This document shows positions 32,545-61,589 of a stretch of DNA of 64,000 nt, piece after piece (the first letter of the stretch is position 1; the number at the start of each line of letters is the position of its first letter). Source of the stretch: Macrostomum lignano. Taxonomy: Eukaryota. The stretch lies in NCBI GenBank assembly GCA_002269645.1, contig NIVC01001570.1:1-64000 (forward strand). The letters are read 5' to 3'. Under the pieces are notes generated by a model. It ran no database searches, was not told the origin of the DNA, and saw only the letters and a list, made by a program, of their open reading frames with translations. A program made the position numbers and the translations under genes.

Positions 32545-34394
32545 GTATTTTGTAAGGGAACTGAAGACGAGCTCAACCTCTTCCATCGATTTTTTTGGAC
32601 ACGACTGTTCAAAAACACATTCTTCCAAGTCTGATAACCTGGCCGCCAAGTTTAGTTGTTTTATCTCGTCTCATTTTTAAAAGGTCGCTGTGACCTACGC
32701 GCGCTGTTCGCTGCATCCTGCATTTTAGAGTCTACGACTCATTCGGTTTTACATAGCGTGATGTAACCGCCCTTGTCGCCTGTCCGCTCCGTAGAGAGAC
32801 GAACGCATGACTAGAGGGGGCAATGACCGTAGGCTGCCTATGACCGGGCAATGACCTGACGGACCTCCAGCACCAGACTGTCCCGCCCACATGATTAGTA
32901 GCTTTGGTAGCGCTTCGTGACCAGAGGGCCAAGGACCCACATGGACCCCACCTGTAGCCAAGGTGCAATAGTTGGTCACTCGGTCATAGTATGACCGAGT
33001 GGCTGCCACCACTCTATGTGACCTGGCGCACCTGGATCTTTCTACCAGACCTCTCGAGGCTAGAGCCCCGCCTGGATTGGTTACCAGGGGATTTAGGCTA
33101 ACAGGGGAGACGCATGCAGCCGAGTACAGGGACTCTGCTTGGGGCATGATCGGGAACTCTGGGCTCAATCCTGGAGGATTTCTCAGCAGGGGATCCTTTG
33201 TGGCTGTGAGCGAGGCTGACTTGCGACTTTGATTACTAAGAGTAGTATGAGGCGAACATGTACTGTCTACAGTTTAGATTGCTCAGGGCGAAGGGACGCG
33301 TTAGCATGGGGTTGCAACCTTCCTACTGCCATTCTGTGCCAAGACTCGCTAATCCCTCTACTGCACGCACACGCGGCCCGCAGCACGCACTCACAGGCGG
33401 GCTGTGCACGGGGAGAGGCCATTAGCTTACCCAAACTTCCTTATGCTTTGCCACCCCGGGAGAAAGGCTTAGCAAGCCATGAGTGAAATGATGGTGAAAG
33501 ATTGAATAATGATGAAGTTAGTTAATAGTTAATAATTAGGCCCTTAGGCAAATAAGCAGGCAATTAGGCGGCTTCACTATTGAGTAAAATACAGCAAAAG
33601 ATACGGTATCACAATTGGCTCAGCTCTCTAATCAGACAATGGAAAATAGGCAAACCCCGGATAAGCAAAGGCAATTAGAGCACAAATTAGTAGTAGGAAC
33701 TTACCGGCAGCTGCACAGAGAGAGAGAGAGGCGGAGTGACCGAGGGCGGCTGTAGGCTGCAGTCAGGCAGACGGTGAAGCGGTGATGCGCTGGAGCGACG
33801 AGGCGCTGATGTAGATCAGGCGATGCTGATGATGCTGGGCGGTATCAGACCGCTGGCCGATAGGCGAGCTCACTTGGGGAGCTAAGGATAACTTGGCGGT
33901 AACAGACCGCGGACCGGCAGGGATTCGTCTTATAGACGAATGGGTCAGAACTCAATCTGACAGCAAGTCCAAAGAAGGACGAGGAGAGGAACAGAGATAA
34001 CCTCAGTTGAGTATTCTCATGCCGAAATCGCTTCCTTTTATAGACCTCACAGCCGCCTCCTCAAGGTCGTTACCATGGCTCCCTCTCTCTGATTGGCTGC
34101 CGGCAGAATGACGTCAGAATGAGTCATGATGAGAAGCATGAGACCGGCATAGCAACATGAGAAATCGGGAAATTGCGCAATCCGGAGGTGGGGTGGGGGG
34201 ATAATTGGCGCAGCGGGTGGTCGCGAAAGTGTTGCGCAAGCAAACATTGAGAACAATAGGGCTGGGGTCATACATGCGCAACCTCCAAAATTTGGTCGGC
34301 CGTGCGACTTAGTTTTAACAAAAATGCGACGTAGTTTTCGGCCAAAAATGCGACTTACATGAAAAAAACCTGAAAGCAAAATTAATGCAACTTT

Positions 34395-34452
34395 GGGTAA
34401 ACGGCAGGAGTAACTATAACTGTCTTTATTAAGGCAAAATGCTTCGTCAGCT
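34395..34452 (+). other. Degenerate 28S rRNA-derived fragment (R2 / I-PpoI target region)
   Basis: GGGTAAACGGCAGGAGTAACTATAACTGTCTT...AAATGCTTCGTCA versus 28S GGGTAAACGGCGGGAGTAACTATGACTCTCTT...AAATGCCTCGTCA (recalled; 3 mismatches in the first 32 nt). Confidence 0.7.
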
Positions 34453-34999
34453 ACTTAATACTACTTTGGTATTTATTTGGGTGGGCATTTTTGCAACTTA
34501 CCTTGGTTGGCCGCCAAATCAGTCGTCCATATCGGCCAACTATTGTGCATGTATGGTTTTGACTCTTGTCATTCCTAATCGTATTTGTACCCCATGTGGC
34601 ACTAGAACAGTACACTTGACACGGAGTGTTTTAGGCATGATTGTACAGTGTAAGGTTGCAAAAGTGGGGAGTGGCAGAGATACATATGTATATATAGCTG
34701 TATGAGTATGATGGCACAAGCTAAGGCTAAGTCAATGCATGCAGCGATAAAAGCAGTCTGTAAAGCCAAATAGTGAAAGTTAACCTTAACTTATAGCACC
34801 TTGGCAGCCTATGCTGTCTGCCTGCATCTGATACGAGCATATAACTAAACTACCAAGGCAATTGGTTGTATTTACACTTACTTTCTGTACATGAATTGGT
34901 AAAGGTAAGGGCTTTTAAATGTTTTATTTATATAGTAATACTCATAAATCAATTTTATTTTATCACCAAAATCATATACTCGACTTAATCTTTCACAGA

Positions 35000-37900: not shown

Positions 37901-38781
37901 CAAATTTAGAAAATATCAAATCACCTTCCTCAGGCTTTGATGACGAAAGTAAAGCAACTGCCTCTGGATTATTGAAAACATTGCAAAATGTCCGGTATTA
38001 TTCATTACATCTATTTCTCATGGACATTCTAAAATTACTGGAATTTGAGTCCTTGCAGTTTCAAAGAGCCAAGGGTACATTTATTGGCTTGAAAGAACGC
38101 CACACTAACCTTATCCATTCACTAGAAACCTTAAAAACGAACAATGGTCCTCGCATTGTGGACTTTTTGGCTTCCTGCAAGTGTCGTCGAGTTTTGGGAA
38201 CTGCAGATGGATATCCGCAGCTGGAATACCATTCAGGATGTCACACAAGAGACCTATCTTATTCTAACTTTGCTTGTCCTTCCGGCCCTGGAAGCAGCGA
38301 TCCAACAGAGAGGTTTGAGTTGAAGCAACCAGGTTCTGCTGCAGACAGATCTCTAAGAAATAGATTATTTGATGCTAGTGGACGTGGCAGTGTTGTTGAC
38401 ATGGGAGCTTATCCAGCACTGGATGAGATTCGCAGTCGAATCATTGATAGCATAATTGATCAGCTGCGTAATTATTTTCCTGAGGATGACTACTCAATAT
38501 TTAATGTGCTCAACCCAGTGTTATTGCCTAATGCTGAAACATTACATACTGTCTTTACATACAGTTCGAGAATCATACCTCTTGCTAGACGGTTTGGAAT
38601 GGAAGATGACAGCTCTGAATCTGAAACAGAGGACCATCTTTCTGATTCAGACTCTAGAGATGCAGATGCTTCAGAACGCGCTACAGAAAGGACAATCTCT
38701 GGTCAGACTACAGTTCTTCTAAGTTCATATATAAGACCGTTAGAATCTTGCAGTTTTAATTTGCTAATTAAATATTATTAA
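35000..38781 (+). pseudogene. Disrupted hAT transposase gene with an N-terminal signal-peptide/lamin-tail-like extension
   Basis: ORF from ATG 35000 with one in-frame TAG (35777); phase-2 intron ending at 36758; CRIC zinc finger; SIVLDTTSD, TTDGASVM, HCAAHKLEL and RW hAT motifs; frameshifts near 37000 and 37440; C-terminal dimerisation domain not seen. Confidence 0.85.
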
Positions 38782-38984
38782 AAGTATGATTTGCAATTGT
38801 AATAGGGCTGAAAAATTACTGCTTATAAGTTATTCTATCCCTATTTCTATTCCTTAGCCATTTCTGGCTTCGTAATTCTTAATTTTTCAAATTGATGCGT
38901 TAATGCACACGTAGCCTACACCCTAGTAAGTGATACATTAAATTCATCCTAAACTAATCCTATCCTAATAATCCTAAAGATGCT

Positions 38985-40545
38985 CTGCGACTTAACTCAG
39001 TCCTGCTGCGACTTACCTCGGCCCTGCTGCGACTTACTCGGTCCTGCTGCGACTTAGCTCGCCCTCAGTGCGACTTAGCTCTCGCTCGGTGCGACTTAGC
39101 TCGCCCTCGGTGCGACTTAGCTCGCCCTCGGTGCGACTTAGCTCGGTCCTGCTGCGACTTAGTGCGACTTAGCTCTCGCTCGGTGCGACTTATTTTGCCC
39201 TCGGTGCGACTTAGCTCGCCCTTAGTGCGACTTAGCTCGGTCCTGCTGCGACATAGCTCGCCCTCAGTGCGACTTAGCTCTCGCTCGGTGCGACTTAGTT
39301 CGCCCTCGATGCGACTTAGCTCAGTCCTGCTGCGACTTAGCTCGCCCTCGGTGCGACTTAGCTCTCGCTCGGTGCGACTTAGCTCGCCCTCGGTGCGACT
39401 TAGCTCGGTCCTGCTGCGACTTAGTGCGACTTAGCTCGGTCCTGCTGCGACTTAGTGCGACTTAGCTCTCGCTCGGTGCGACTTAGTTCGCCCTCGGTGC
39501 GACTTAGCTCGGTCCTGCTGCGACTTAGCTCGCCCTCGGTGCGACTTAGCTCTCGCTCGGTGCGACTTAGCTCGCCCTCGGTGCGACTTAGCTCGGTCCT
39601 GCTGCGACTTAGTGCGACTTAGCTCTCGCTCGGTGCGACTTATTTTGCCCTCGGTGCGACTTAGCTCGCCCTTAGTGCGACTTAGCTCGGTCCTGCTGCG
39701 ACTTAGCTCGCCCTCAGTGCGACTTAGCTCTCGCTCGGTGCGACTTAGTTCGCCCTCGGTGCAACTTAGCTCGGTCCTGCTGCAACTTAGCTCGCCCTCG
39801 GTGCGACTTAGCTCGGTCCTGCTGCGACTTAGTGCGACTTAGCTCTCGCTCGGTGCGACTTATTTTGCCCTCGGTGCGACTTAGCTCGCCCTTAGTGCGA
39901 CTTAGCTCGGTCCTGCTGCGACATAGCTCGCCCTCAGTGCGACTTAGCTCTCGCTTGGTGCGACTTAGTTCGCCCTCGGTGCAACTTAGCTCGGTCCTGC
40001 TGCAACTTAGCTCGCCCTCGGTGCGACTTAGCTTGGTCCTGCTGCGACTTAGTGCGACTTAGCTCTCGCTCGGTGCGACTTAGTTCGCCCTCGGTGCGAC
40101 TTAGCTCGGTCCTGCTGCGACTTAGCTCGCCCTCAGTGCGACTTAGCTCTCGCTCGGTGCGACTTAGTTCGCCCTCGGTGCGACTTAGCTCGGTCCTGCT
40201 GCAACTTAGCTCGCCCTCGGTGCGACTTAGCTTGGTCCTGCTGCGACTTAGTGCGACTTAGCTCTCGCTCGGTGCGACTTAGTTCGCCCTCGGTGCGACT
40301 TAGCTCGGTCCTGCTGCGACTTAGCTCGCCCTCGGTGCGACTTAGCTCGGTCCTGCTGCGACTTAGTGCGACTTAGCTCTCGCTCGGTGCGACTTATTTT
40401 GCCCTCGGTGCGACTTAGCTCGCCCTCGGTGCGACTTAGCTCTCGCTCGGTGCGACTTAGTTCGCCCTCGATGCGACTTAGCTCGGTCCTGCTGCGACTT
40501 AGCTTGCCCTCGGTGCGACTTAGCTTGCCCTCGGTGCGACTTACC
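38985..40545 (+). repeat. GCGACTTAGCTC-based 10-20-bp satellite inside the right end of the hAT
   Basis: Mixed units (GTGCGACTTAGCTCGCCCTCG etc.) with ~220-bp higher-order repeats. Confidence 0.92.
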
Positions 40546-42079
40546 TTGTCTTCAGTGCTGCAACTTACAGCACTTACAACTCTTTTTGTGTTTTTCTCTT
40601 TCTCTTTGCTCCCTTTTTCTCATTTTTTCCTTTTCCTTTCCCCTTTTTCGTCTTTTGTTTTTTCGTTTTTTTGGCAGTTAATCAATTTTGCGACTTACTT
40701 GGTTGGCCGCCAAATCGGTCGGCCGGATCGGCCGACTCGGCCGACTGTTGCGCATGTATGGCTGGGGTCGAGAACAAAGGAATTGGAAATCGGGGATAAT
40801 TGGGGAAAACTGAGAACAATGGAAAAGTAAACATTGGAGAAAAGGTGATAATTAGGTGCGAAAACGAGAACAAAAGAAAGAGAAAATCGGAGAAAATGTG
40901 ATAATTGGTGGGGGTCGAGAGAACAAAAGAAGCAAAAACGAGAACAATAGAAGCGGAGGTGGGGTGGGTGTCACATGAGAAATTTGGGAAGGAGAACAAT
41001 AGCGTGAGAAAAGGTTGCGCAAGAGAGGGGGGTGAGTCATCGATGAGTCACCGAGGGGGAGAAGGGGTCACACGACTTGCGTCACCGTTTGGGAGTTTGA
41101 GAGGGGATGGGGAGACGGTGAGCACACAAAGTACTGTAAGTAGACACAGGGAAAGAGGGGACAGCGCAGGAAAAGAGTGCAGAGGGAGACAAAAAAAAGG
41201 AGGAGGTAGAGAAAGTACAGGAAGAATAGGGCGGGAGCAGAAGAGATAGGGTAGAGGGGGAGGTACAGAAAGGGGTAGGGGCTCCGGAAAGGCAGGTGTG
41301 GCGGCAGGAGAGACGGGACCAAGGCAGCAGGAGAGGTGCAGCAGAGCGGGAGTCTCCAGGCCCGGTCGGAGACCTGGCCGAGTCTCGACAGCTCTGTGCA
41401 GAGGGTGCACGGGATAGGAGGCACTTTCGAAAAAGTTCCCATGCCCTATCCCGCGACCAGGGCGTGGTTACTTCACACCCCCACTGCCTTTTGTGACGGA
41501 ACTGGTTCCGTCATCATCGCTGCCCAACATGGAACCACACAGACGGGAGCGGGATCTCAACCGAACGTGAAATCACAGAATTAACAAACCGCGAGCGGGA
41601 ATGGAAAAAGGCGATAAAATAGAGGGGATAGCAATAAATTCACAAAACGAGATACATAGGTTGGAGTGCAATACAGAATTTCAAAAATTTCAACTGTTGC
41701 TGTGGCTAAAGTGGGAGGGTGGAAACACAGACAGCGCAATAGTAGGGAGAAAAATAGCGAATTGTCAACAATAAATTATCATAATTGGATAGAAGCGCAG
41801 CTGGGAAAGAGAGGAAACGGGGAAGGGTGAGGGAAGTGGGGAAAAAGAAGGGGGAAGGGTTGCTAGCACACAGCCAAGGGCAGAGCCTCGGGGAGAATGA
41901 CGATTACACAGGGGAAAAATACTAATGCAGCGCAGTAAATTAATAAGCTAATTTCGCCGGGAGTTCAACCGCACGGAGGCCTAGCGTCCTTGAAGGCTCG
42001 GACCCCGCTTCAGCCAGTCAGAGGGCTTCGGGGCGATCGGTTGTAGGCTGGGAGGCGCCGCGCCCTGCGCTGGCCACTG

Positions 42080-42186
42080 TATAAAAGGCGCCACTGATAA
42101 CGGGAGCCGGCTGCCTGCAACCTACACGGAGTCGCAGTTTCCAACCAAGGCACTCAGCGCGATTTTCCAAACTATACAACTACTCG
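42080..42186 (+). promoter_or_regulatory. Candidate antisense promoter (TATAAAA 42080-42086) and non-coding first exon ending at a GTAAGT donor (42187)
   Basis: Canonical TATA about 100 bp upstream of a perfect donor; no ATG in between. Confidence 0.55.
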
Positions 42187-42534
42187 GTAAGTCCCATCAC
42201 CAACCTGATTTCCTTTCGCCTATACGTTAAACGAAATCTACCCACTCGCCATGCCTTTCGTTTTAAACTGAGCCAATTGCAGTAATAATATATGGCCTTT
42301 CTTACGGTAAAAGTAGTGAGCAGCCAACACAGAGCCATTTTTAGGAATTTTTAGGATAATGACACAACAATGACTCGTATATTGGTTATTAAAGTTTAAA
42401 AATGAATATTATGGAAGAACCGAATATTAATAGGATAATTTCACACACACACACACGACAAACACACAACGCAAGGGGGCGGAAAGGCGGGTCGGACCGG
42501 CCGGCGGACGTCGCTCAGCAGGTAGTCAGCATCC

Positions 42535-43884
42535 TTACTCGAAATGGGCCTCTTGATTTAGCTGGTACGGGCCATATGCCGCCACCTGAGCCATGGCACT
42601 TGCCCATGCTTCCACATAACGTTGGGCTGCCGCGGCCGTGAGCACCACTCGGTGCCATCGGCTAGGCAAGATGTCGTTGCGCAGCACGCCCCTCAACTGC
42701 GGCAGAGTCGGGATGCCCAGGGCTTGGCATTGGACGACGAAGGCCGCATTCCGTACTTGTTGCAGCCGTGTCAGAGTTGGTGCAGACAGGGGCGGCTGCG
42801 CGATTGCAAAATGCTGCAAAGTGCCACGGGGCACCTCGGCCAGGCCCGCGTAGCCGGGCTCAACGTCGCCCAGGGCCGCCAACACCCACCCACAGCGGCG
42901 ATTGAACCGTTGCGAGAGAGTGGCGGCCCAGGCCACTGTGGCAAACGGCGCATAGAGGAGGGGCGCAGAGGCCGGCGCGGAGGCCGCAAGAATGCCGTCG
43001 TGGATGACGAGAGCCTCTTCCCATTCGGCGCCCTCGCTCAGGAAGCCCCAGAGCAGCCCTGGCAGGTCCGCAGGAAGCATGCCCCAGCGGCTGGCCAAGC
43101 TGGCCAGGCCAATCAATAGCCGGGCTCTCTGGGTTGGTGTCAGTTGTCTAGTCATCTGAGAGGAGGCTGCGCAGCTGATGATCACCTTCTTGTAGACCGG
43201 CCGATCGCAGGTGCTGAAGATTGCTGTGATGGGGGCACAGGACGGCGGCCGGGCTGTCAGGTGCGATGGTTCCTCATCCACAACCTTGCGGAGGAACTTG
43301 GCGGCCTGCCGGACTAGGTCGCCGAGGGCGTATTTGTAGGCGCTCTGGGCCGCTGCCTCGATGTACATTAACAGCGTATTGTCAACCAATCCCAGCAGGG
43401 CCGCTTTTGACAGGATGAGCAGACAGGGCCGGTCCAGGTTGTCGCGAAGTTGGCGCTCTAGAGTCGCATGCCTGTCCTCGGCCTGGAGTGGGCCATGATA
43501 GGACTCAGGCCCGACCCAGTGCACCAGATCCATAGCTGTCGCCGAAGGTTCGCCAGCCACCTGACCCCAATCGACTTCTTCTCTTTGCAGGGCGATGTCC
43601 ACACTTCGGCGGCTGTTGGGCAGAACATCACGCAGGCGGCGGGCCGCCTCGCCGAATTCGGCCGCCAGGTCCGAAATGTCCGCGGTGTCGCCCCCAGCAT
43701 TGGCCGGGTCGATTGTCTCGTCACCTTCTTCGACCCTGGCGGAGGCCGCCGCTGGCGGCTCGGGGCCGTCCTCCGCCTCTTGGATGGCGTCACGGGGCCG
43801 CTTTCGGCTAACTGGGCTGGCAGGACGCTCAGACGGTAAGCTGGAGCATAGCTGAATTCGATTGATGGTAGGCTTCGTGTCCAT
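42535..43884 (-). CDS. 449-aa orphan accessory ORF of the LTR element (env position)
   Basis: Intact non-repetitive ORF; acidic/Pro-rich N-terminus with RKRPR; no recognisable RT, IN or env motifs. Confidence 0.72.
   Translation of the reverse strand: MDTKPTINRIQLCSSLPSERPASPVSRKRPRDAIQEAEDGPEPPAAASARVEEGDETIDPANAGGDTADISDLAAEFGEAARRLRDVLPNSRRSVDIALQREEVDWGQVAGEPSATAMDLVHWVGPESYHGPLQAEDRHATLERQLRDNLDRPCLLILSKAALLGLVDNTLLMYIEAAAQSAYKYALGDLVRQAAKFLRKVVDEEPSHLTARPPSCAPITAIFSTCDRPVYKKVIISCAASSQMTRQLTPTQRARLLIGLASLASRWGMLPADLPGLLWGFLSEGAEWEEALVIHDGILAASAPASAPLLYAPFATVAWAATLSQRFNRRCGWVLAALGDVEPGYAGLAEVPRGTLQHFAIAQPPLSAPTLTRLQQVRNAAFVVQCQALGIPTLPQLRGVLRNDILPSRWHRVVLTAAAAQRYVEAWASAMAQVAAYGPYQLNQEAHFE
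43591..43835 (+). CDS. Antisense gene exon 2 (ATG 43595; MSTLRRLLGRTSRRRRAAS...)
   Basis: CTGAC branch-like motif, CTTCTTCTCTTTGCAG acceptor and GTAAGC donor (phase 1); overlaps the 449-aa ORF on the opposite strand. Confidence 0.55.
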
Positions 43885-43976
43885 GTCAAGCTGGATAGTT
43901 CAGAGAATGCTTCAGCGATTGAAGGACAGAATGATTTCTCTGATTGATGATTTCCAGCTCTGGCAGGCGTGGGTCT

Positions 43977-44094
43977 TCTTATAGTGCCGGGGCTGGCTTC
44001 CCATTGGTTGAGCACATTGGGAGGCACACCTGCTGCGGCCGGGGTCGCCGTTGGCTTGGGACCGCTCGCTCTAGTCTCCGTGCGCTCTGATTGG
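43977..44094 (-). promoter_or_regulatory. Candidate internal promoter for the 449-aa ORF
   Basis: TATAAGA (43983-43977) plus three CCAAT boxes (44003-07, 44016-20, 44090-94) on the minus strand, ~95 bp upstream of ATG 43884. Confidence 0.5.
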
Positions 44095-44889
44095 CTGGTT
44101 CCGCCGCTTCCTGTTTCCTCACCTGTGAGAAGGGGCCAGACCCGAGACCACCTCCGGTCGCGCCCGCGGCAGATCCGTACTCCAGCCGACAGAGATCGCA
44201 CTCCCACCTCACATGCACACATTCAGATCAGGCACACAAATTAATTTGATTAATATGAATAGAAGAGGGATTTGGGAGATTAGACTCCGGAGGATAAATG
44301 ATGATGCGGCCCAACTCCCTTCGATTTCTTCCTTCAACGCCACGCGCACGCAGTTCTCATCCATGCCTCCGAGACCCTCATAAACTTAACAGCCGAAAGA
44401 ATTCGAAAGAGGAATTAATCATTAATTTGACTGCCACCAGTTTGATGTACTATTATAAAAGAGAAAGGGGAACCTACCACCATCTTGGCGCATTACCAAA
44501 GAAAAGAAAAGGAGGATCAGCCACCATTTTGAGAGAGGTTGCTAGGGAAAACTGCCACCAATTGTACATTAACAGGGAAGAGAAAGAGGGAACCCGTCAC
44601 CACTTAGAGTGGATTGCCCGGGGAAACTGCCACCATTTGCCCTTCTACCAGAGGAGAGGAAGACGAAAAACTGCCATCACTTAGAGGTGTATCATTAAAA
44701 GAAGGCGGGGAAGAAGGCTACCACTACTTGATCACCTAGAGCTCAAGGGGAGGAGAGGGAATGAAGAAAGGAAGAAACCCCCAGGAAGGCCACTACCACA
44801 CGCCATAAAGTTAAAATCCCCATCTATCTACATCCTAATACCCGGCTAGTTCCCTACTTCTATTTTATCCCTTAAATTCTCATTTTCAG

Positions 44890-45296
44890 GATTCCGGCCG
44901 CTAGTAGCCGAGCCCATCCTTGAAGAGGAGTCCGACTACGAAGCGCCCGAAGACAGCCATTCAGAGCCGGACGCCCCCTCTGATTCTGGGCCGGCTGCGC
45001 CATCTGGTGGCATAGGCGCCGCGGCTCCCGGGCCATGCGACCGCCGGGCCGCCAGCGAACCAGCGTCCGGGGCCGGTTGGCATCCGGTACCACCGCCGTT
45101 GTCAGCCCGAGCGCACGCTCCGCCGCCGGTCGCCGCGGTGACGCCCGTGGCTGCCGCTCCACAGCCCTTGCCAACCCCTGTGGTGGAGGCCGACGGCTCC
45201 TGGCATTTGGTCGTGCTGTCGACGGCCCTAATAGCCGGTCTCACAATGCACTGGCTACTGCTCTTGGAGCTATTTCTGCGGCTTCCCAACTGCTGA
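44890..45296 (+). CDS. Antisense gene exon 3, Pro/Ala-rich with C-terminal hydrophobic helix
   Basis: CATTTTCAG acceptor (phase 1, in frame); FRPLVAEPILEEESDYE...HLVVLSTALIAGLTMHWLLLLELFLRLPNC*; ATTAAA at ~45480. Confidence 0.55.
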
Positions 45297-45656
45297 TGCT
45301 GGTGGTTCTTAATGCTTACTTACTATTTCTGAACTATCTGTCCCCATAACTTGACTTTAATTACTTACCTGACTTTACATTGACTAAACCACTGGCCTAC
45401 TCTAAACTAATTGCTGCCCCATTTGCCTGATAAACTTAATTACATTGAAGGCCCCCCCCCCTATTGCCTCATCGAAACCAATTAAAAGTTTCCCAAAATC
45501 GGACTTTCACAAAGTGTGAACAAACACACGAAATCAGACCTAAAGGTGCTAATTTCCTACGGTCCCAGACTTCCATTGTTCCCAGAAAATCTTGAACAGC
45601 GGGGCAGGACCTCCTGTGGAGCAGACCCATAGAAATTTTACTAGTTTCCAAGTTAA

Positions 45657-48561
45657 TCCTATATATAATACTAAAAATGAAAATCTTGCTTGCTTGCTTG
45701 TAATCGATTAGAGAAAAAGTGGTTTAACCGATTTTCATGAGACTTGCACTGTTCAATCAGAAATTTTCCCGGGACGGTACATGTATCTTGGCTAAGAAAT
45801 TGCTAAATTCTAAAGGGATTAAATATTCGAAAAACATACTTTTTTGCAAAGGTCAAGCAAACTTTTCGACTTGAAATGCATTGTAAGAATGCTAGAGAAA
45901 AAACTGACGACTGGTTGAATTCTGATTCTGAAATAGATTGCATCATAACTGAAATGTAACTCCGACTTGAATTGCGTCACAGTATTGAAAATGCAGTGTG
46001 GAAGCGTAGCACCAGACTTGATTTAGATTGCGTAACCATATTCTCAACTTTAATTGAGACTGACACTGACTTGCCTGGGAAATTGATTATGTCATAACTG
46101 CTTCGTGAGTGAGTGTTGAATTATATAAGTGCTACAATTTCATTTATAAATTCGATAAGATCTAGCCTAGATGTGAACAGACTGGACTGCTAATGCAGCG
46201 ACCTGGGTTCGAATCTTAGTAGTGAAAATTTTTTTATTAAAAGCTTTTATTAAAAAAATAATAAAGGACTAAAGGCGTCATGCAAAAAATCAGAGAAGCG
46301 TCATGTAAACAATCATAGAAGCGTCATGTAAACAATCATAGAAGCGTCATGTAAAAATCATAGAAGCGTCATGTAAACAATCATAGAAGCGTCATGTAAA
46401 AATCATAGAAGCGTCATGTAAAAATCATAAAAGCGTCATGTAAACAATCTTAGAAGCGTCATGTAAACAATCTTAGAAGCGTCATGTAAACATCATAGAA
46501 GCGTCATGTAAAAATCATAAAAGCGTCATGTAAGCAATCATACAAGCGTCATGTAAAAAATCATAGAAGCGTCATGTAAACATCATAGAAGCGTCATGTA
46601 AACATCATAGAAGCGTCATGTAAAAATCATAGAAGCGCATCCTGCAAAAATCGTAGAAGCGTCATGTAAACAATCATAGAAGCGTCATGTAAAAATCATA
46701 GAAGCGCATCCTGCAAAAATCGTAGAAGCGTCATGTAAATAATCATAGAAGCGTCATGTAAAAATCATAGTGAGTAGAAGCGTCATGTAAAAAGTCATAG
46801 AAGCGTCATGTAAACAATATTAGAAGCGTCATGTAAAAATCATAGAAGCGTCATGTAAAAATCATAAAAGCGTCATGTAAACAATCTTAGAAGCGTCATG
46901 TAAACAATCATAGAAGCGTCATGTAAAAAGTCATAGAAGCGTCATGTAAACAATATTAGAAGCGTCATGTAAAAATCATAGAAGCGTCATGTAAAAATCA
47001 TAAAAGCGTCATGTAAACAATCTTAGAAGCGTCATGTAAACAATCATAGAAGCGTCATGTAAAAAATCATAGAAGCGTCATGTAAACAATCATACAAGCG
47101 TCATGTAAAAAATCATAGAAGCGTCATGAAACAATCATAGAAGCGTCATGTAAACAATCATAGAAGCGTCATGTAAACAATCATAGAAGCATCCTGCAAA
47201 AATCGTAGAAGCGTCATGAAAAAAATCATCGAAGCGTCATGTAAAAATCATAGAAGCGTCATGTAAAAATCATAGAAGCGTCATGTAAAAAATCATAGAA
47301 GCGTCATGAAAAAATCATAGAAGCATCATGTAAAAAATCAAAGGAGCGTCATGAAAAAATCATAGAAGCCTCATTTTAAAACTAATGAAAGTGTCATTTA
47401 AAAAATTAAGAGGCATCATAGTAGAATAAAAGAAGCGTCATGTCAGACATGAAGGGTGTCATGTAAAAATTAAATGAAGCTATAGTGCTGTGCTGGGGAG
47501 AAAAACTGTGACGTCAAGGCTCACAGAGAATAACTGAGATTACGGGGGGGGTTCTGAGATGTCAAAGCAAAAGTCAGATGCTACTTCAAAGTTCATGTAC
47601 TTTACTCCATTTTTTATTACATTCTTTGTTGGCTCGCCACGGGGGGTGCTGATAGAAGAAGAGTCATGTAAAAAATAAAAGTAGCACTATGTATACATAA
47701 AAGAAAAGTCATGTCGAAGTTAAAAGATTCATTTGGGAATGGCTACGATGTCAAAGCTTGGTGGAAATCGTTATAGTGCTGTGATTCTTAAAGAAGGAAT
47801 CACTAAAATGTCAAGGCTTAGGGGAGAAGAATTGCTGAGATTTCAAGGCTTTAGGTTGGGTTAAAGTTAGGTTTAGGTCAGGTGTGGGTTGAGGGTTATA
47901 TTTTATCGGGTTTCAAGGTTAACAGGGGATTTTTTAGATTTCAAGGTTTATGGGGGCCATCGCCGACATGTCAAGGCTTACGGGGTGAATAGCTGAGATG
48001 TCAGGGCTCACGGGGGTATAAATGAGATTTCAAGGCTAAAGTCAGAAGCTACATGTAGTTTATTGAAAACTTTTTATTCCGATATTTGATGCCTCCTCAG
48101 GGGAGGGATTGCTGATAAAAAAAGCGTAATGTAGAAAATAAAAGAAGCTTCATGTCGAAGTTAAGAGATTCATTTGGGAATCCCTACGATGTCGAGGCTT
48201 GCAGGGAATCGCTATAATGCTGTAGTAGTGCTATAATGACTCTTAGAGAGAATTACTGAAATGTCAATGCTTCAGGGTTAGGTTAGGGTTAGGGTTAGGG
48301 TTAGGGTTAGGGTTAGGCTAGGGTTAGGGTTAGGGTTAGAAGGTTGACAGATATTTTTAGATTTCCAAGGCTTATTGGGGGCATTGCTGAGATGTCAAGG
48401 GGGGAAGTTGATATGTTAAAGCTTGTGGGGGGGAATTACTGACATGTCAAGGCTTACAAGGTTTGACAGGAGATTTTTTAAGATTTCAAGGATACATGTA
48501 GCTTATTAAAAAAACATGTATTGCATTTTTTGGCTCCCCAACGGGGGGCGTAGATTGCTAG
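45657..48561 (+). mobile_element. Non-autonomous Helitron-like element H3 with a 22-bp satellite and telomeric repeats
   Basis: A|TCCTATATA start, shared head, AGAAGCGTCATGTAAAAATCAT array (~46270-47400), CCCCAACGGGGGG hairpin and CTAG end. Confidence 0.8.
48274..48339 (+). repeat. Interstitial (TTAGGG)n telomeric repeat
   Basis: About 10 units within H3. Confidence 0.9.
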
Positions 48562-51500
48562 TCCTATATACTAAAATGAGTTGTCTGTATGTGGGTAGGT
48601 ATGCGATAGATTTTAGAAAAAATGGCTCAACTGATTTTCTTCAAACTTGCACCATTCGATCAGAAATTTTCCTGGGACGGTACATGCATCTTGGCTAAGA
48701 AATTGCTCAATATTAAAGGGATTAAATATTCGAAAAACATGCTTTTTTACAAAGGTCAAGCAGCTCTTTCGACCTGAAATGCATTGTAAGAATGCTAGAG
48801 AAAAAACTGACTGACTGAATTTCAATTCTGATAAAGATTGCATCACAACAAGTTGAAAACAGTGCCGAAGAAATGCACACACAACTTGATTTAAATTGCG
48901 TAACAATATTGCTAACTTAAATTGACACTGATACTGGCTGACTGAGAAATTGATTATGTCATAACTTTTTACTCTAACCGATTTGCTCTAACCGAATTGC
49001 GAAGAACCGGTTCGAATCTTAGTAGTGCAAAAAGATTTTTTTATTCAAAAACCTTAAAAACACAAAATGCTAAACACAAAAAAGCACAATGTCAAACATC
49101 AAAGAGCCACCATGTCGAAGATTAAAGAGCCATCATGTCTAACATTAAAGAGCCACCATGTCTAACATTAAAGAGCCACCATGTCGAACATTAAAGAGCC
49201 ACCATGTCAAGCATAAAAGGACCACCATGTCGAACATTAAAGAGCTACCATGTCAAAAATTAAAGAGCCACCATGTCTAACATTATAGAGCCACCATGTC
49301 GAACATTAAAGAGCCATCATTACATTAAGGTGCCACTAGGTCAAACATGAAAGAGCCACCATGTCTAACATTTACGAGTCACCATGTCTAACATTTTCGA
49401 GTCACCATGTCAATTATTAAAGAGCCATCATGTCAAACATTAAAGAGCCATCATGTCAAACATTAAAGAGCCACCATGTCAAACATTAAAGAGCCACCAT
49501 GTCAAACATTAAAGAGCCATCATGTCAAACATTAAAGGACCACCATGTCAAACATTAAAGAGCCATCATGTCAAACATTAAAGGACCACCATGTCAAACA
49601 TTAAAGAGGCACCATGTCGAACATTAAAAAGCCACCATGCTGAACATTAAAGAGCCACCATGTAAAAATTAAACAGCCACCATGTCTAACATTAAAGAGC
49701 CACCATGTGGAACATTAAAGATCCACCATGTCGAACATTATAGAGCCACCATGTTGAACATTAAAGAGCCACCATGTCAAACATTAAAGAGCCAGCATGT
49801 CAAATATTAAAGAGCCACCATTTCAAACATTAAAGAGCCATCATTACAGACATTAAGGTGCCACCAGGTCAAACATTAAAGAGCCACCATGTCTAACATT
49901 AACGAGTCACCATGTCAAGTATATTCGTGACTCCATGTCAAACATCAAATAGCCATCATACCAAACATTAAAGAGCCACCATGTCGAAAATAAAAAATCC
50001 ACCATGTAGAACATTAAAGAGCCATCATGTCAAACATAAAAGATACACAATTTCAAACCTAAAAGTAAGCGTCATGCCAATTTTAAAAGAGCCACTATAG
50101 AGCTAAGGAAATTGTTGCACTAGCTACTTATTGTCTGGTGGATGCTTACTACTTGGGGATGCTTACTATCTGGGGGATGCTTGCTATCCGGGAGGGGGGA
50201 TGCTTCCTATCTGGGGGATGCTTGCTATCAGGGGGATGCTTGCTATCTGGGGGATGCTTGCTATCTGGGAGAATATTAAAGAGCCACTATGTCGAACATT
50301 AAAGAGCTACCATGTCTAACATAAAAGAGGCACCATGCCAAACATAAAAGAGCCACCCTGTCGAACATTAAAGAGCTACCATGCCAAACGTAAAAGAGCC
50401 ACTATGTAGAACATAAAAGAGCCACCATGTCAAACATTAAAGAGCCACAATGTCAAACATTAAAGAGCCACCATGTCGAACATTAAAGAATCATCATGTC
50501 AAACATAAAAGAGCCACCATGTCAAACGTTAAAGAGACACCATGTCAGACATTAAAAAAAACCGAATCAAACATAAAAGAGCTACCATGTAGAACATAAA
50601 AGAGCCAAAAGAGCCACAAACATAAAAGAGCCACCATCTCAAACATATATGTGACTCCATGTCAAACATAAAAGAGCCATCATGTCAAACATTAAAGAGC
50701 CACCATGTCGAACATTAAAGAACCATCATGTCTAACATTAAAGAGCTACCTTGTCAAACACTAAAGAGCCACCATGTCGAACATCAAAGAGCCACCATGT
50801 CAAACATAAAAGAGACACCATTTCGAAAATTAAAGAGCAACCATGTCAAACATTAATGAGACACCATGTCAGACATTAAAAAAACCCCGATTCAAACATA
50901 AAAGAGCCACCATGTAGAACATAAAAGAGTCACCATGTCAAACATTAAAGAGCCAACATGTCAAACATAAAAGATACACAATTTCAAACCTAAAAGTAAG
51001 CGTCATGCCAATTTTAAAGGAGCCACTATAGAGCTAAGGAAATTGTTGCACTAGCTACTTATTGTCTGGTGGATGCTTACTATTTGGGGATGCTTGCTAT
51101 CTGGGGGATGCTTGCTATCTGGGAGGGGGGATGCTTCCTATCTGGGGGATGCTTGCTATCTGGGGGATGCTTGCTATCTGGGAGGGGGGATGCTTCCTAT
51201 CTGGGGGATGCTTGCTATCTGGGAGGGCGGATGCTTCCTATTTGAGGGATGCTTGCTATCTGGGGGATGCTTGCTATCTGGGGGAATATTAAAGAGCCAC
51301 TATGTCGAACATTAAAGAGCCACCATGTCAACCATAGAAGAGCCACCATGTCGAACATAAAAGAGCCGCCATGTCGAACATAAAAGAGCCACCATGTCGA
51401 ACATAAAAGAGCCACCATGCCAAGCATAAAAGAGCCACCATGTCAAACATAAAAGAGCCACCATGTCAAACATAAAAGAGCCACCATGCCAAACATGAAA

Positions 51501-51860
51501 GAGCCACCCTGTCGAACATAAAATGCTTGCTATCTGGGGGATGCTTGCTATCTGGGGGATGGTTTGCTATTTGGGGGATGCTTGCTATCTGGGGGATGCT
51601 TGCTATCTGGGGGATGCTTGCTATCTGGGGGATGCTTGCTATCTGGGGGATGCTTGCTATTTGGGGGATGCTTGCAATCTGGGGGATGCTTGCTATCTGG
51701 GGGATGCTTGCTGTCTTGGGATGATTTATTTTTGCATTGCACTTTATTTGAGCAGTTTGTCTGTTGTCTTTGAGAAGGCTTTATCTGGCTGTCTTTTTGT
51801 TACCTGTAGAGAGCAGAGATTCTATCCACATGTCCCCCAACGGGGGGCGAAGATTGCTAG
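48562..51860 (+). mobile_element. Non-autonomous Helitron-like element H4 (same subfamily as H1)
   Basis: TC start directly after H3's CTAG; 23-bp and 18-bp arrays with a duplicated linker; hairpin plus CTAG|T end. Confidence 0.8.
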
Positions 51861-52090: not shown

Positions 52091-52615
52091 TCAGCGGGGG
52101 TCGAATGGGAGACTCACACCTAGCAAGTAAACCTTTTCTGTTCGATAGTCTATGATAGCATGCGTACTGGCTAGAAAAGCACTACCCAGGAGGGAAACTG
52201 CTGCTGAATTGCCAACGACCAGAAAGAGGATTCTCACCTCTTCTAGCCCAATAACTGCTGTGAGGGTGGCCTGGCCTAGCATCTCTAATTCATTGCCCGT
52301 GTAGGACACGGCCTTCACACATGGGGGCTCCAGGGCCTCCACACTCTGTCCGGTAATTTTAGTAAAGTCTTTGACTGTTAGCAAAGACAGCGCACTGCCC
52401 CCATCTGCCAGGAGGCGGGTGGGAACATTCTCAATTGGCAACTCTACAACAATATCTCTCCCGCGTTGTCCTCTAGCTGGTCTTGGCTGATAGAAATCGG
52501 GCACCTTCTCAAATCTAAACTTCTTGCTGGGCGGACGTGGCAGGTTAAGCTGGGCCCTAGAGAGGGAACGGGGCTGAGTTCGGGCCGGGCCATTCAGCCC
52601 TCCCACGGGTTTCCC
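52091..52615 (-). CDS. Retropepsin-like protease, reached by -1 frameshift from gag
   Basis: IENVPTRLLADGGSALSLL...SYTGNELEMLG...LLGSAFL; frame is -1 relative to gag; followed by a stop with no RT. Confidence 0.75.
   Translation of the reverse strand, partial: GKPVGGLNGPARTQPRSLSRAQLNLPRPPSKKFRFEKVPDFYQPRPARGQRGRDIVVELPIENVPTRLLADGGSALSLLTVKDFTKITGQSVEALEPPCVKAVSYTGNELEMLGQATLTAVIGLEEVRILFLVVGNSAAVSLLGSAFLASTHAIIDYRTEKVYLLGVSLPFDPR
52553..52615 (-). promoter_or_regulatory. -1 programmed ribosomal frameshift signal (G GGA AAC plus stem-loop/pseudoknot)
   Basis: Heptamer 52615-52609 is correctly phased in gag; 8-nt spacer; stem GGGCTGA/TCAGCCC; loop GGCCC can pair with downstream GGGCC. Confidence 0.75.
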
Positions 52616-54039
52616 GAACCCGGGGGCTCTTCAGGCGTGGGAGGAGGAGGCATCAGAGCTTGCGCGCGCAGCTGGGCGAGCCTCTCCTGCCTCTCCCTGG
52701 TAGCCTCGTCTAACATATCTCTGCCCCAATCCTCTAAATCTTGCCTATGGCGATCGGGTGGCGCACGAAGCTGCAATTGCTGCTGCTGCACACCCGGCGC
52801 CGGCGGCGTGGGCGCCTCCTGAATTGCAAGCGGCGGGGGCTGGGATTGGCGCCAGTTCCTACTGTTATTAGAGCCGCCCTGCCCCTGCCTCCAGTTCCTG
52901 TTGGGAGTGGCGGGGCGAGGGGGCCTCATCTGCTGGGGCAGCTGGGCAACAGACTCTGCTGTCGCCTTCATAGTTTCATTGAGCTGCACCAGCTGGTTGC
53001 GCAGATCCTTTTGCGTTTGCTCTAGCGCGCCCAACCTCTCTTGCATCTCTGATAGGCCGTCACTGTCCTCCTCCGTCTCGTCAGCTTCCTGGTTCACCAT
53101 CCTGACCCACTTGCGAGGGGGCCTGGGTGGCTGCTGAGGTTGCAGACGGACTTCGGTGCGGGACTCAGACCTGGGCGGGCCACTACTGTCCCATTTCCCG
53201 GCTAAGTCTGCGGCTTCTAACAGGGCTTGCTGCTGTTCTAACACCTGCTCAATTGTCTGCCAGCGACGGCTCAACAGATCTTGTCTGACCTGGCGGGGGA
53301 GCTTAGCGTGTTCCAAGTAGGTGTACACGATTTCTTGTTCTCTCTGCTCACCCTGAATCTGAGGAAACATGGCCGTTATCTGAGATCTTATCATAGCAGC
53401 AAAAGCACTATGTGATTGGCCGGGTTTCTGGCTCAGATTCTTCAGCTTATTTCTCTTAGCCAGATCAGTGTTGGCCTCGCCCAACTGCTCTCCTAATCTA
53501 GATACGAACTGCTCAAAGGGCAATTGCCCGTCCAATCCTAAGGCTAAGTTCTGAAATTCACCTGGGAGGTGCGAGATGAGCACCTGCTTCCTAGCCTGAT
53601 CTCCTACAGTTCTCTCCGCGTCCAGCTTGTAGATCATTCTCTCTACCCATTGCACAAAACAGTGTTCGCCGGGAGAGAACTTCTCTACGTAGATTTTCGG
53701 CCTCTGAGCTTCTTGGCCCATGTTTAGCTGGTTAAACGCATTGGCTATAGCAGCAACTAAGTCTCCTAGCTGCGGGACTGCCTGAGGAGGATTCTGGGCT
53801 GCGTCCGGGGGAGCAGCGGCGGCTGCTGCGTCACCCTGATTGGGAGCGGGAGCTGCTACTCCTTCATCTGGTTCCTCAACTACTACTGCTTCTGGAGGCT
53901 GAGGGACCTGGTTACCAGCGGCTGCGGCCATTGCGGCTGCGGGGGCGGCAACTGCTGGGGTGTCAGCGGCCGAGGGTGGTTGACCAGGGGCGTCTGCGCA
54001 CACAGCTTCTACGACCCTATCTCCACGCGCCCGTGACAT
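52594..54039 (-). CDS. Gag (481 aa from ATG 54039)
   Basis: Gypsy-type capsid pattern (KFS..EHCFVQWVERM...LKNLSQKPGQSHSAFAAMI), coiled coil and Pro/Gln-rich tail; no CCHC knuckle. Confidence 0.85.
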   Translation of the reverse strand: MSRARGDRVVEAVCADAPGQPPSAADTPAVAAPAAAMAAAAGNQVPQPPEAVVVEEPDEGVAAPAPNQGDAAAAAAPPDAAQNPPQAVPQLGDLVAAIANAFNQLNMGQEAQRPKIYVEKFSPGEHCFVQWVERMIYKLDAERTVGDQARKQVLISHLPGEFQNLALGLDGQLPFEQFVSRLGEQLGEANTDLAKRNKLKNLSQKPGQSHSAFAAMIRSQITAMFPQIQGEQREQEIVYTYLEHAKLPRQVRQDLLSRRWQTIEQVLEQQQALLEAADLAGKWDSSGPPRSESRTEVRLQPQQPPRPPRKWVRMVNQEADETEEDSDGLSEMQERLGALEQTQKDLRNQLVQLNETMKATAESVAQLPQQMRPPRPATPNRNWRQGQGGSNNSRNWRQSQPPPLAIQEAPTPPAPGVQQQQLQLRAPPDRHRQDLEDWGRDMLDEATRERQERLAQLRAQALMPPPPTPEEPPGSGNPWEG

Positions 54040-56391: not shown

Positions 56392-56409
56392 ATCCCACCG
56401 CTGCCACCA
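56392..56409 (-). other. Primer binding site, tRNA-Leu
   Basis: TGGTGGCAGCGGTGGGAT lies 3 nt inside the 5' LTR and is complementary to the ...ATCCCACCGCTGCCA(CCA) 3' end of eukaryotic tRNA-Leu(AAG). Confidence 0.88.
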
Positions 56410-56412: not shown

Positions 56413-58626
56413 TGATGTAACCGCCCTTGTCGCCTGTCCGCTCCGTAGAGAGACGAACGCATGACTAGAGGGGCAATGACCGTAGGCTGCCTATGACCGG
56501 GCAATGACCTGACGGACCTCCAGCACCAGACTGTCCCGCCCACATGATTAGTAGCTTTGGTAGCGCTTCGTGACCAGAGGGCCAAGGACCCACATGGACC
56601 CCACCTGTAGCCAAGGTGCAATAGTTGGTCACTCGGTCATAGTATGACCGAGTGGCTGCCACCACTCTATGTGACCTGGCGCACCTGGATCTTTCTACCA
56701 GACCTCTCGAGGCTAGAGCCCCGCCTGGATTGGTTACCAGGGGATTTAGGCTAACAGGGGAGACGCATGCAGCCGAGTACAGGGACTCTGCTTGGGGCAT
56801 GATCGGGAACTCTGGGCTCAATCCTGGAGGATTTCTCAGCAGGGGATCCTTTGTGGCTGTGAGCGAGGCTGACTTGCGACTTTGATTACTAAGAGTAGTA
56901 TGAGGCGAACATGTACTGTCTACAGTTTAGATTGCTCAGGGCGAAGGGACGCGTTAGCATGGGGTTGCAACCTTCCTACTGCCATTCTGTGCCAAGACTC
57001 GCTAATCCCTCTACTGCACGCACACGCGGCCCCGCAGCACGCACTCACAGGCGGGCTTGCACGGGGAGAGGCCATTAGCTTACCCAAACTTCCTTATGCT
57101 TTGCCACCCCGGGAGAAAGGCTTAGCAAGCCATGAGTGAAATGATGGTGAAAGATTGAATAATGATGAAGTTAGTTAATAGTTAATAATTAGGCCCTTAG
57201 GCAAATAAGCAGGCAATTAGGCGGCTTCACTATTGAGTAAAATACAGCAAAAGATACGGTATCACAATTGGCTCAGCTCTCTAATCAGACAATGGAAAAT
57301 AGGCAAACCCCGGATAAGCAAAGGCAATTAGAGCACAAATTAGTAGTAGGAACTTACCGGCAGCTGCACAGAGAGAGAGAGAGGCGGAGTGACCGAGGGC
57401 GGCTGTAGGCTGCAGTCAGGCAGACGGTGAAGCGGCGATGCGCTGGAGCGACGAGGCGCTGATGTAGATCAGGCGATGCTGATGATGCTGGGCGGTATCA
57501 GACCGCTGGCCGATAGGCGAGCTCACTTGGGGAGCTAAGGATAACTTGGCGGTAACAGACCGCGGACCGGCAGGGATTCGTCTTATAGACGAATGGGTCA
57601 GAACTCAATCTGACAGCAAGTCCAAAGAAGGACGAGGAGAGGAACAGAGATAACTCAGTTGAGTATTCTCATGCCGAAATCGCTTCCTTTTATAGACCTC
57701 ACAGCCGCCTCCTCAAGGTCGTTACCATGGCTCCCTCTCTCTGATTGGCTGCCGGCAGAATGACGTCAGAATGAGTCATGATGAGAAGCATGAGACCGGC
57801 ATAGCAACATGAGAAATCGGGAAATTGCGCAATCCGGAGGTGGGGTGGGGGGATAATTGGCGCAGCGGGTGGTCGCGAAAGTGTTGCGCAAGCAAACATT
57901 GAGAACAATAGGGCTGGGGTCGAGAACAAAGGAATTGGAAATCGGGGATAATTGGGGAAAACTGAGAACAATGGAAAAGTAAACATTGGAGAAAAGGTGA
58001 TAATTAGGTGCGAAAACGAGAACAAAAGAAAGAGAAAATCGGAGAAAATGTGATAATTGGTGGGGGTCGAGAGAACAAAAGAAGCAAAAACGAGAACAAT
58101 AGAAGCGGAGGTGGGGTGGGTGTCACATGAGAAATTTGGGAAGGAGAACAATAGCGTGAGAAAAGGTTGCGCAAGAGAGGGGGATGAGTCATCGATGAGT
58201 CACCGAGGGGGAGAAGGGGTCACACGACTTGCGTCACCGTTTGGGAGTTTGAGAGGGGATGGGGAGACGGTGAGCACACAAAGTACTGTAAGTAGACACA
58301 GGGAAAGAGGGGACAGCGCAGGAAAAGAGTGCAGAGGGAGACAAAAAAAGGAGGAGGTAGAGAAAGTACAGGAAGAATAGGGCGGGAACAGAAGAGATAG
58401 GGTAGAGGGGGAGGTACAGAAAGGGGTAGGGGCTCCGGAAAGGCAGGTGTGGCGGCAGGAGAGACGGGACCAAGGCAGCAGGAGAGGTGCAGCAGAGCGG
58501 GAGTCTCCAGGCCCGGTCGGAGACCTGGCCGAGTCTCGACAGCTCTGTGCAGAGGGTGCACGGGATAGGAGGCACTTTCGAAAAAGTTCCCATGCCCTAT
58601 CCCGCGACCAGAGCGTGGTTACATCA
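56413..58626 (-). repeat. 5' LTR (2214 bp)
   Basis: TG...CA termini with a 10-bp inverted repeat; uninterrupted copy. Confidence 0.95.
57352..57778 (-). promoter_or_regulatory. LTR promoter (TATAAAA 57694-57688, CCAAT 57748-57744, TGACGTCA 57761, TGAGTCA 57772) and GTAAGT donor (57357)
   Basis: Consensus motifs in promoter-like spacing; same set in the 3' LTR (TATA 34036-34042, donor 33704). Confidence 0.6.
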
Positions 58627-60740: not shown

Positions 60741-60828
60741 AACTATTACAATACCTCCATTAGCCAATAAGCAACAATATCTATCTAAAGTGACCAATCA
60801 GAACCCTTTTAATCAGAGGGCCACCAAC

Positions 60829-61467
60829 CTTATCAAGCTGGCCGGCAGCAGCTTCAATCTCGTCCAACAGCTGGTCAGGATCGGCTCTGCCAAGCAGGCC
60901 AGCCTCGCTAAGCCGAGGCCTCAAATACCGGTGCGACTGCCACAGCTTGTTAATTAGCCTTGAGCAGGTGTCAACTAGCTGAGGATCGAAGGCCACCCGG
61001 TCCAACTGGAACCGGTGACTGCACAGGGCCAAACGCAGAGCGTCCGGCCCACCCTGGCCAACCAGTCCAATCGGGTCGATCACGTTGCCGCGACTTTTGC
61101 TCATTTTTCTGCGTCGCGAATCGCACACTAATCCGTTTAATAATACCCTGCGGAATGGCAGCTGGCCGCCCGTCAGCTGCTGGGTCAGCATGACCATCCT
61201 GGCAGCCCAGAAGAACAGTATATCGTGCCCGGTCTCCAGCAGGCTGAGCGGGAATCGACTAGGATTAGGCGGATCCAAGTCCGGCCAATCGGCCAGGGAC
61301 AGAGGCAGCAGGCCGGAGGAGAACCAGGTGTCGAGAACGTCAGAATCGCGGCGAAGGGTAAATGAAGACGACGATGTCGATTGAAACTTCTGACGGGCAG
61401 CCTGGGCAGCCTCTGACTCGGAGCGGGCGGCCAACCAGCCCAGACTGGAGCCGTTCGAGTCCAGCAC
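60829..61467 (-). CDS. VARS: Valyl-tRNA synthetase exon with KMSKS motif
   Basis: DVLDTWFSSGLLP, LLETGHDILFFW, RKMSKSRGNVIDP; GGCAG acceptor, GTTGGT donor, phase 0. Confidence 0.96.
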
Positions 61468-61589
61468 CTGCCGTGCGGGGGAATTAAGGAGCTGTTTTTG
61501 ATGGGGAGGCTATGAAATTTTATAGGGGAATTGGAAGAAGTTTTATTATACAGGCGTTGGGGGATTACGATAATCGAGTAATTACTCTA

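Follow-up and report, generated by a model that had tools for sequence, protein, structure and literature searches.

Antisense genes of retroelements have been reported both in plants, as the additional open reading frames (ORFs) Grande gene23, RIRE2, and Retand (PMC7264820), and in retroviruses, as HBZ in type 1 human T-cell leukemia virus (HTLV-1) and APH-2 of HTLV-2 (PMC3185765). Here we analyze 64,000 nucleotides of Macrostomum lignano DNA (positions 1 to 64,000 of contig NIVC01001570.1, assembly GCA_002269645.1; hereafter the window), whose minus strand carries a Ty3/gypsy long terminal repeat (LTR) retrotransposon that we call element B, and whose plus strand carries, within that element, a spliced antisense gene of three exons (Table 1). 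Like the plant antisense ORFs, this gene is flanked by the coding region on one side and the 3′ LTR on the other, has its own upstream promoter, lacks a database homologue, and has been assigned a possible accessory role; unlike them, it is found in an animal, has three exons with RNA-supported junctions, overlaps a second accessory gene, and belongs to an element without pol. The same review called for a search for spliced antisense transcripts. Like HBZ and APH-2, the gene gives rise to a spliced antisense mRNA from a retroelement; unlike HBZ, which starts in the 3′ LTR, has its ATG in exon 1, and encodes a basic leucine zipper (bZIP) factor (PMC3185765), it has an internal promoter, a noncoding exon 1, and no zipper. 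An initial annotation of this DNA, made from the sequence alone, had drawn the HBZ analogy, which is loose beyond the spliced antisense transcript: the TATA box at 42080 lies about 600 bp outside the LTR, which ends at 41475, no Leu heptad was found in the antisense protein, and the corresponding gene model P0002 has no Pfam match. We regard the gene as real; the likely bipartite arrangement in which it is embedded, described below, is the more surprising.

Splice-like motifs are common by chance (after shuffling, the region yields on the order of 3.1 acceptors and 6.8 donors of this kind, and the acceptor at 44889 itself fails the strict pyrimidine filter used for these counts), so that the case for the gene rests on RNA and conservation. 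RNA contigs from four runs of four studies (X1, X2, X4, and X10) were aligned to copy L048, which is 99.4% identical to the window copy, and expression is established for the family rather than for the interrupted window copy. The contigs are unstranded, place 26 to 28 letters on the short side of the junctions, and were assigned a strand from GT..AG. The initial annotation had singled out the two junctions as the place to look, and each is present in two of the four runs: X10 skips both introns, X1 skips intron 1, and X2 skips intron 2, in each case exactly and with GT..AG on the plus strand; neither junction was found among the X4 contigs. The runs carry no RNA label on record, and their nature was judged by coverage of a multicopy sister element; since this element is mostly uncovered in X1, X2, and X10 (3, 11, and 1 of 30 bins, respectively, versus all 30 in X17), these three runs behave as RNA and not as genomic DNA. 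Intronless genomic copies of exon 2 were found in 0 of the 35 scored, all of which keep the flanking introns, and two UniRef gene models from Macrostomum lignano (P0002 and P0004) share the exon 2/3 junction. The claim of a spliced, protein-coding antisense gene in an LTR retroelement is thus borne out by both junctions in family RNA contigs and by selection on exon 3.

The motifs lie where the initial annotation had placed them, apart from the end of exon 1, which is at 42187 and not 42186. Exon 1 contains no ATG, and the frame opened in exon 2 runs through a spliced length of 215 codons to a TGA at 45294-45296; HBZ and APH-2 are about 200 amino acids long. Exon 2 and a 449-codon gene in the sense of gag (ORF449) had been described as coded back-to-back; they do share DNA on opposite strands, as an antisense overlap within ORF449 (about codons 17-98, with third positions in common) and not as abutting frames. 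Exon 3 overlaps no other known gene.

Comparison of the window with 38 copies shows that every aligning site is kept with few exceptions: two copies have GC at donor 2, one has TATAAGA, and C513 has lost the TATA box. Of the 38 copies examined, 33 align at the ATTAAA, and all 33 have it. The splice sites are retained even in diverged copies, and donor 2 varies within the consensus, the window copy having GTAAGC, both C100 and C201 GTGAGT, and C513 GTAAGT. Judged by the ratio of nonsynonymous to synonymous substitution rates (dN/dS), exon 3 is under purifying selection: i) dN/dS is 0.23 relative to C100 (p 4e-6) and 0.32 relative to C616 (p 3e-6), versus 0.74-1.77 in control frames other than the mirror frame, which has third positions in common; and ii) in the last 39 codons of exon 3, changes relative to C616 fall 5/0/7 by codon position, and the invariance of second positions favors the plus-strand frame. 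At the other end of the protein, the first 15 residues are identical in three lineages, even though C201 shows 3 differences in the ORF449 frame that overlaps them. Pulling in the other direction, exon 3 dN/dS relative to C513 is 0.64 and not significant; exon 2 dN/dS (0.23-0.40) is confounded by the ORF449 overlap, in which third-position change (38/81) is not clearly below that outside it (183/352); the 215-residue frame is intact in only 11 of 27 close copies in this assembly; and 19 of 54 indel positions fall in runs of at least 3 bases, so that assembly error is inseparable from decay. An antisense frame held open by ORF449 and joined by cryptic splicing, for which one could cite the shared wobble positions of exon 2 and the chance frequency of splice-like motifs, is largely refuted, because exon 3 lies outside ORF449 yet is selected, the junctions occur in RNA, and a sister family has the same layout. 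We consider it almost certain, from these comparisons and the RNA contigs, that the antisense gene is real and protein-coding. Copy C201 carries ORF449 and exon 2 only; the pol-like ORF close to it is a LINE.

Table 1. Features of element B and of its antisense gene, given as feature, position in the window (or locus), strand, and basis or remark.
TATA box of antisense gene (TATAAAA)	42080..42086	+	sequence; retained in partner element A too
Antisense exon 1, noncoding	42105..42187	+	donor used in RNA contigs; 5′ end estimated from TATA box
Intron 1, GT..AG	42188..43590	+	junction 42187/43591 in RNA contigs X1, X10; donor GTAAGT starts 42188
Antisense exon 2; ATG 43595; encodes Arg-rich N-terminus	43591..43835	+	antisense overlap with ORF449
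Intron 2, phase 1, donor GTAAGC at 43836	43836..44889	+	junction in X2, X10
Coding portion of antisense exon 3, with acidic patch, Pro/Ala linker, and hydrophobic helix	44890..45296	+	dN/dS
C-terminal hydrophobic helix, residues 187-210 (24 residues)	45207..45278	+	predicted tail anchor
Candidate poly(A) signal ATTAAA	45481..45486	+	conserved across copies
ORF449, 449-aa orphan gene, gag sense	42535..43884	-	dN/dS, homologues
Candidate ORF449 promoter, internal, with a pair of CCAAT boxes plus TATAAGA	43978..44098	-	sequence only
3′ LTR, first piece, ends TGATGTAACC...GGTTACATCA	32759..34269	-	99.7% to 56413-57921
3′ LTR, second piece	40757..41475	-	99.2% to 57909-58626
Polypurine tract	41476..41488	-	sequence adjoining LTR
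Aspartic protease ORF, DGG motif	52091..52630	-	hidden Markov model (HMM) built on the proteases of other elements, E 1e-5
Candidate -1 slippery heptamer GGGAAAC and downstream hairpin, joining gag to protease	52609..52615	-	frameshifting inferred
gag of element B	52594..54039	-	27-28% to gags of pol-bearing gypsy elements
Primer-binding site	56394..56409	-	sequence; same site in 9/9 A copies
5′ LTR	56413..58626	-	LTR comparison
Deletion derivatives of element B	L054, L056, L058-L059, L060 (C2291, C3228, C181, C598), C4958		

Element B (32759-58626) is a Ty3/gypsy LTR retrotransposon with LTRs, a primer-binding site (which we take to be of tRNA-Leu type), a polypurine tract, and a target-site duplication; the order reverse transcriptase (RT), RNase H, integrase is found only in its partner, element A. 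The window copy is interrupted by insertions at 34270-40756, which splits the 3′ LTR, and at 45658-51857, and is flanked at its outer ends by the 4-bp duplication AGCG, 4-bp duplications being found in 8 of 10 copies. Uninterrupted copies are 13.15 kb long with LTRs of 2.2 kb, in the order LTR, primer-binding site, long leader, gag, slippery heptamer and hairpin, protease, exon 3, ORF449, exon 1. Both gag and protease are conserved (dN/dS 0.09 relative to C100 and 0.19 relative to C513, respectively). The protease ORF stops at the end of the domain with no RT after it, no RT, RNase H, or integrase match was obtained in 10 of 10 B copies, and only the gag part of the element A polyprotein aligns. 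Element B is thus not autonomous, and fits the semi-autonomous Gag-protease type represented by Sabrina_SA: Gag-protease is intact, RT and integrase are missing, and the cis signals are shared with an RT-bearing partner. In place of D[ST]G, the B protease reads DGG both in the window (52360-52410) and in all 3 diverged copies checked, and the sister family has DSG.

A gag search led to the first copy of that partner (C936, 12.3 kb), and element A was identified at 10 loci once all 14 candidates had been scored. Elements A and B are 99% identical over the LTRs, over the leader together with roughly the first 50 codons of gag, and over the 3′ region up to and including antisense exon 1, and both have inserted recently, with LTR pairs 99.0-99.8% alike. 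The middle of element A is a single ORF of 1553 amino acids encoding a gag different from that of B, followed by RT, RNase H, and integrase (Pfam RVT_1, RT_RNaseH, and rve). What element A does not encode is an aspartic protease: i) a protease motif upstream of RT is present in 0 of 12 A-type loci (one of which had only 310 bp upstream of RT) versus 16 of the 18 nearest RT relatives; ii) an HMM built from the proteases of the RT relatives, which replaced a B-only HMM too weak to use (control E 0.08), matches the B proteases and nothing in A, and protease HMM searches gave no hit anywhere in 9 of 9 copies of A, nor in 3 complete elements, with the control scoring 7e-29; and iii) the beta-rich domain that stands immediately after the protease in the relatives follows gag and a short linker in A. 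Element A is therefore not autonomous either. ORF449 and antisense exons 2 and 3 are missing from 9 of 9 A copies, and the TATA box, exon 1, and its donor are retained in 8 of the 9, with no coding antisense exon. Just downstream of the retained exon 1, a 301-aa open frame (L123:3893-4795) lies antisense to the tail of the A integrase, with no strong acceptor before it under the strict filter.

The closest parallels to this division are again in plants. Like RLG_Sabrina_SA and Wilma, or RLG_Quinta and Cereba, in wheat, elements B and A are a Gag or Gag-protease element without RT and integrase and an RT-bearing partner with a common LTR and primer-binding site (PMC9744471, PMC11302176). According to these reports, elements of the Sabrina_SA and Quinta type may contribute Gag to the partner; since Cereba has a protease gene of its own and Wilma is described as autonomous, dependence in wheat runs one way, unlike here, where the RT partner lacks a protease in every copy examined in two families. 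Like the putative bipartite florendoviruses (PMC10377300), a reverse-transcribing genome is here divided into complementary A and B components; unlike those plant caulimovirids, which are known there as endogenous fragments and have no LTRs or integrase, both parts are recently inserted LTR elements.

The same division recurs in a sister pair. The sister B family, also without pol, has a gag 39% and a protease 40% identical to those of element B, with strong selection on the protease (dN/dS 0.05-0.08), and its leader is 97% identical to that on two pol-bearing elements without a protease; the two A families form one clade with support 100/100 (7 rows, midpoint root). Complementary gene sets on two units with common cis signals are thus found in two families. 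By sequence, the sister B family has the same antisense layout, with a noncoding exon 1, a phase-1 intron, and a terminal exon; sister exon 2 overlaps the start of the ORF449 homologue, exon 3 has a dN/dS of 0.20-0.22, and the predicted protein is RG-rich with a nonhydrophobic C-terminal helix. Because this protein lacks both the hydrophobic helix and any similarity to that of B, membrane anchoring is not what the two antisense genes share. Sister A, like A, keeps the TATA box, exon 1, and donor without a coding antisense exon. Such retention could mean that the antisense transcript itself is the main regulator, through copy-number control or as a small-RNA source, or that the protein blunts host silencing, with the promoter mattering more than the peptide, and exon 2 is indeed complementary to the start of the ORF449 message; we nevertheless think this unlikely, as exon 3 is selected at the amino acid level in both families and retention in A may simply reflect recombination of the common 3′ region. 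In sister A (L125-L126, C3095), the last ~25 codons of the ORF449 homologue stand right after the pol stop, which points either to recombination with B or to a longer ancestor. A third, degraded relative (L129-L131, C251) has a sister-like leader, pol pieces, and a nearby protease fragment in the opposite orientation.

The predicted product of the antisense gene has the Arg-rich N-terminus, acidic and Pro/Ala-rich middle, and C-terminal hydrophobic stretch that the initial annotation read from it. Residues 1-27 include 8 Arg/Lys and 1 acidic residue, and are followed by a Ser/Ala/Gly stretch, an acidic patch (11/35), a Pro/Ala linker, and the hydrophobic helix; the protein is disordered and mostly of low complexity. 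Tail-anchored membrane proteins have a single hydrophobic helix close to the C-terminus, and the position of this helix, with 186 residues before it and 5 after (RLPNC, one Arg), fits that class. Its hydrophobicity is marginal, with a Kyte-Doolittle 19-mer of 2.02 and a sum of ~0 kcal/mol on a biological-hydrophobicity scale; the pattern, including an internal His and Glu, is preserved in distant fragments (2.21). The description of the protein as membrane-anchored, then, survives in part, the helix being present and conserved in B, and anchoring is plausible but marginal. The same two ends could alternatively be an N-terminal presequence and a stop-transfer anchor of a mitochondrial protein, as some retroviral accessory proteins, such as HTLV-1 p13, are mitochondrial; the basic and, over its first 15 residues, invariant N-terminus would suit this, but the sister N-terminus is not presequence-like by eye, and we judge it quite improbable.

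Of the two functions that the initial annotation had offered, regulatory protein or envelope substitute, a regulatory or accessory class is supported and the other is not. Like sORF2 of Drosophila MDG1 and the FAST proteins (10.1101/2025.03.14.642691), the antisense product is a small single-helix protein in a gypsy element without env, and it could by that precedent be a fusogen moving particles between cells; unlike them in topology and motifs, it has no N-myristoylation motif (MGxxxS/T), no ectodomain of 10-50 aa before the helix, and no polybasic patch (at least 3 Lys/Arg within 15 residues) after it, and the helix is absent from the sister family, all of which makes a fusogen very unlikely. 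Like CERV of Cer1 (PMC10309623), it is a spliced accessory protein of an animal gypsy element, and both patterns of Rev, Rex, and CERV are present, an Arg-rich motif and a leucine-rich export pattern that matches LLLLELFLRL and the C2918 fragment. The Arg-rich end might accordingly bind element RNA, and the Leu-rich helix might be an export or oligomerization signal aiding the export of long unspliced A and B RNAs from the nucleus; the RG-rich sister protein with its nonhydrophobic helix would fit such a common soluble role, and plant antisense ORF products can be nuclear. We think this somewhat unlikely, however, since any Leu-rich stretch can match the export pattern, which is absent from sister exon 3; a 24-residue hydrophobic run exceeds what an export signal needs; no sense-strand splicing is listed in the RNA contigs, so that an export problem is not evident; and CERV itself is encoded on the sense strand, shares exons with gag, and is a structured, nuclear protein. 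No Pfam family was found for the exon 2 or exon 3 translation or for P0002 and P0003, a protein search with the antisense protein gave 7 matches, all from the same species, and the ESM Atlas returned nothing usable.

We tentatively regard it as likely that the 215-residue product is a trans-acting accessory adaptor of a probable two-part element, predicted to be tail-anchored and to have an Arg-rich RNA-binding end. A trans role is suggested by an amplified derivative of B in which a 1.95-kb deletion removes ORF449 and exon 2 and leaves exon 1 and an open exon 3: all 4 deletion derivatives examined lack exon 2 and ORF449, the two checked have LTRs 99.7% alike, and as such derivatives have spread, the product appears to be dispensable in cis. 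Element B would make Gag and, via a -1 frameshift, Gag-protease; element A would make one Gag-RT-RNase H-integrase polyprotein needing the protease of B; B would thus supply bulk Gag and protease, and A would supply RT and integrase. A and B RNAs would be packaged in common particles, in which template switching would keep the cis regions alike. The antisense protein would insert by its C-terminal helix into an intracellular membrane, leaving the disordered part cytosolic, and its Arg-rich end would tether capsid subunits or the RNA of the elements there, bringing the assembly of the two partners to a single site. This last step of insertion and tethering is the weakest of the mechanism, and one we are slightly more inclined to doubt than to accept, while ranking it above each of the other readings of the protein; obligate dependence of A and B on each other is fairly probable; and, on balance, we lean modestly toward the whole, a bipartite lineage split at the protease, obligately complementing, in at least two families, with an accessory-rich gag-protease half whose antisense product brings both RNAs to one particle.

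We wish to stress that several observations weigh against this interpretation. The sister antisense protein cannot be aligned to that of B (best E 2.7) and has no hydrophobic tail (0.36 and 0.94), and the B helix is itself only marginally hydrophobic, with the conserved His and Glu inside it; the sister family is nearly silent in the runs tried and its junctions are uncovered, which says nothing either way about its splicing; the B protease could be under selection solely because it processes the Gag of B itself; and element A could borrow the protease of another family or of the host.

ORF449, the second accessory gene of element B, is strongly conserved (dN/dS 0.11 relative to C100), and its candidate promoter falls within antisense intron 2. 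Its homologue in the sister family is 25% identical, and relatives also occur in two Logan clusters, the longest of which, P0010, reaches no more than 33-34% identity to this genome along its length; a profile search matched 2 proteins among 1.84 billion. No Pfam family, PDB sequence match, or ESM Atlas match was found for ORF449, and word-seeded protein searches with it were empty, yet relatives exist, and such blanks therefore carry little weight. Two AlphaFold models are of low confidence (mean pLDDT 46 and 54), and Foldseek found no match to them at E<=0.001 in viral or PDB libraries. In copy C616, an integrase-bearing insertion (L062:5954-8077) sits within the promoter region of ORF449. 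The ORF449 of C616 is recent and its exon 3 old (73% at the amino acid level), which makes this copy a recombinant between subfamilies.

A literature search, with most subscription papers outside it, found no description of the antisense gene or of an RT partner without a protease. Published element mining for Macrostomum lignano starts from RT, and the main text of that report, in the portion available, mentions neither protease nor non-autonomous elements nor antisense genes (PMC12801592); the family alignments in its supplement 5 may include element A. RT-seeded annotation of this kind is blind to the half on which the accessory genes lie. Known helper and dependent LTR pairs are one-way, and if the reading above is true, a protease-supplying B without pol and an A without protease amount to a segmented retrotransposon; why genomes divide would then become studyable in a regenerating animal capable of transgenesis, with A and B both young and the B family transcribed. 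The antisense gene, for its part, adds an invertebrate gypsy element to the cases of retrovirus-like gene complexity, with several exons, RNA support, and selection.

The two insertions in the window copy of B differ in content. The 6.5-kb insertion at 34270-40756 has terminal repeats and a repeated target site, a transposase-like set of ORFs (34919-38781) that is hAT-like by eye and without a Pfam match, and a 21-bp tandem array (38985-40543). The 6.2-kb insertion at 45658-51857, between exon 3 and the protease, consists of satellite arrays with a (TTAGGG)n-like run at 48274-48339, and is absent from other full B copies. Elsewhere in the window, positions 269-1942 hold the RNase H-integrase part of another gypsy element, and positions 60781-63518 on the minus strand hold exons of a host gene which, from motifs read by eye, we take to be valyl-tRNA-synthetase-like.

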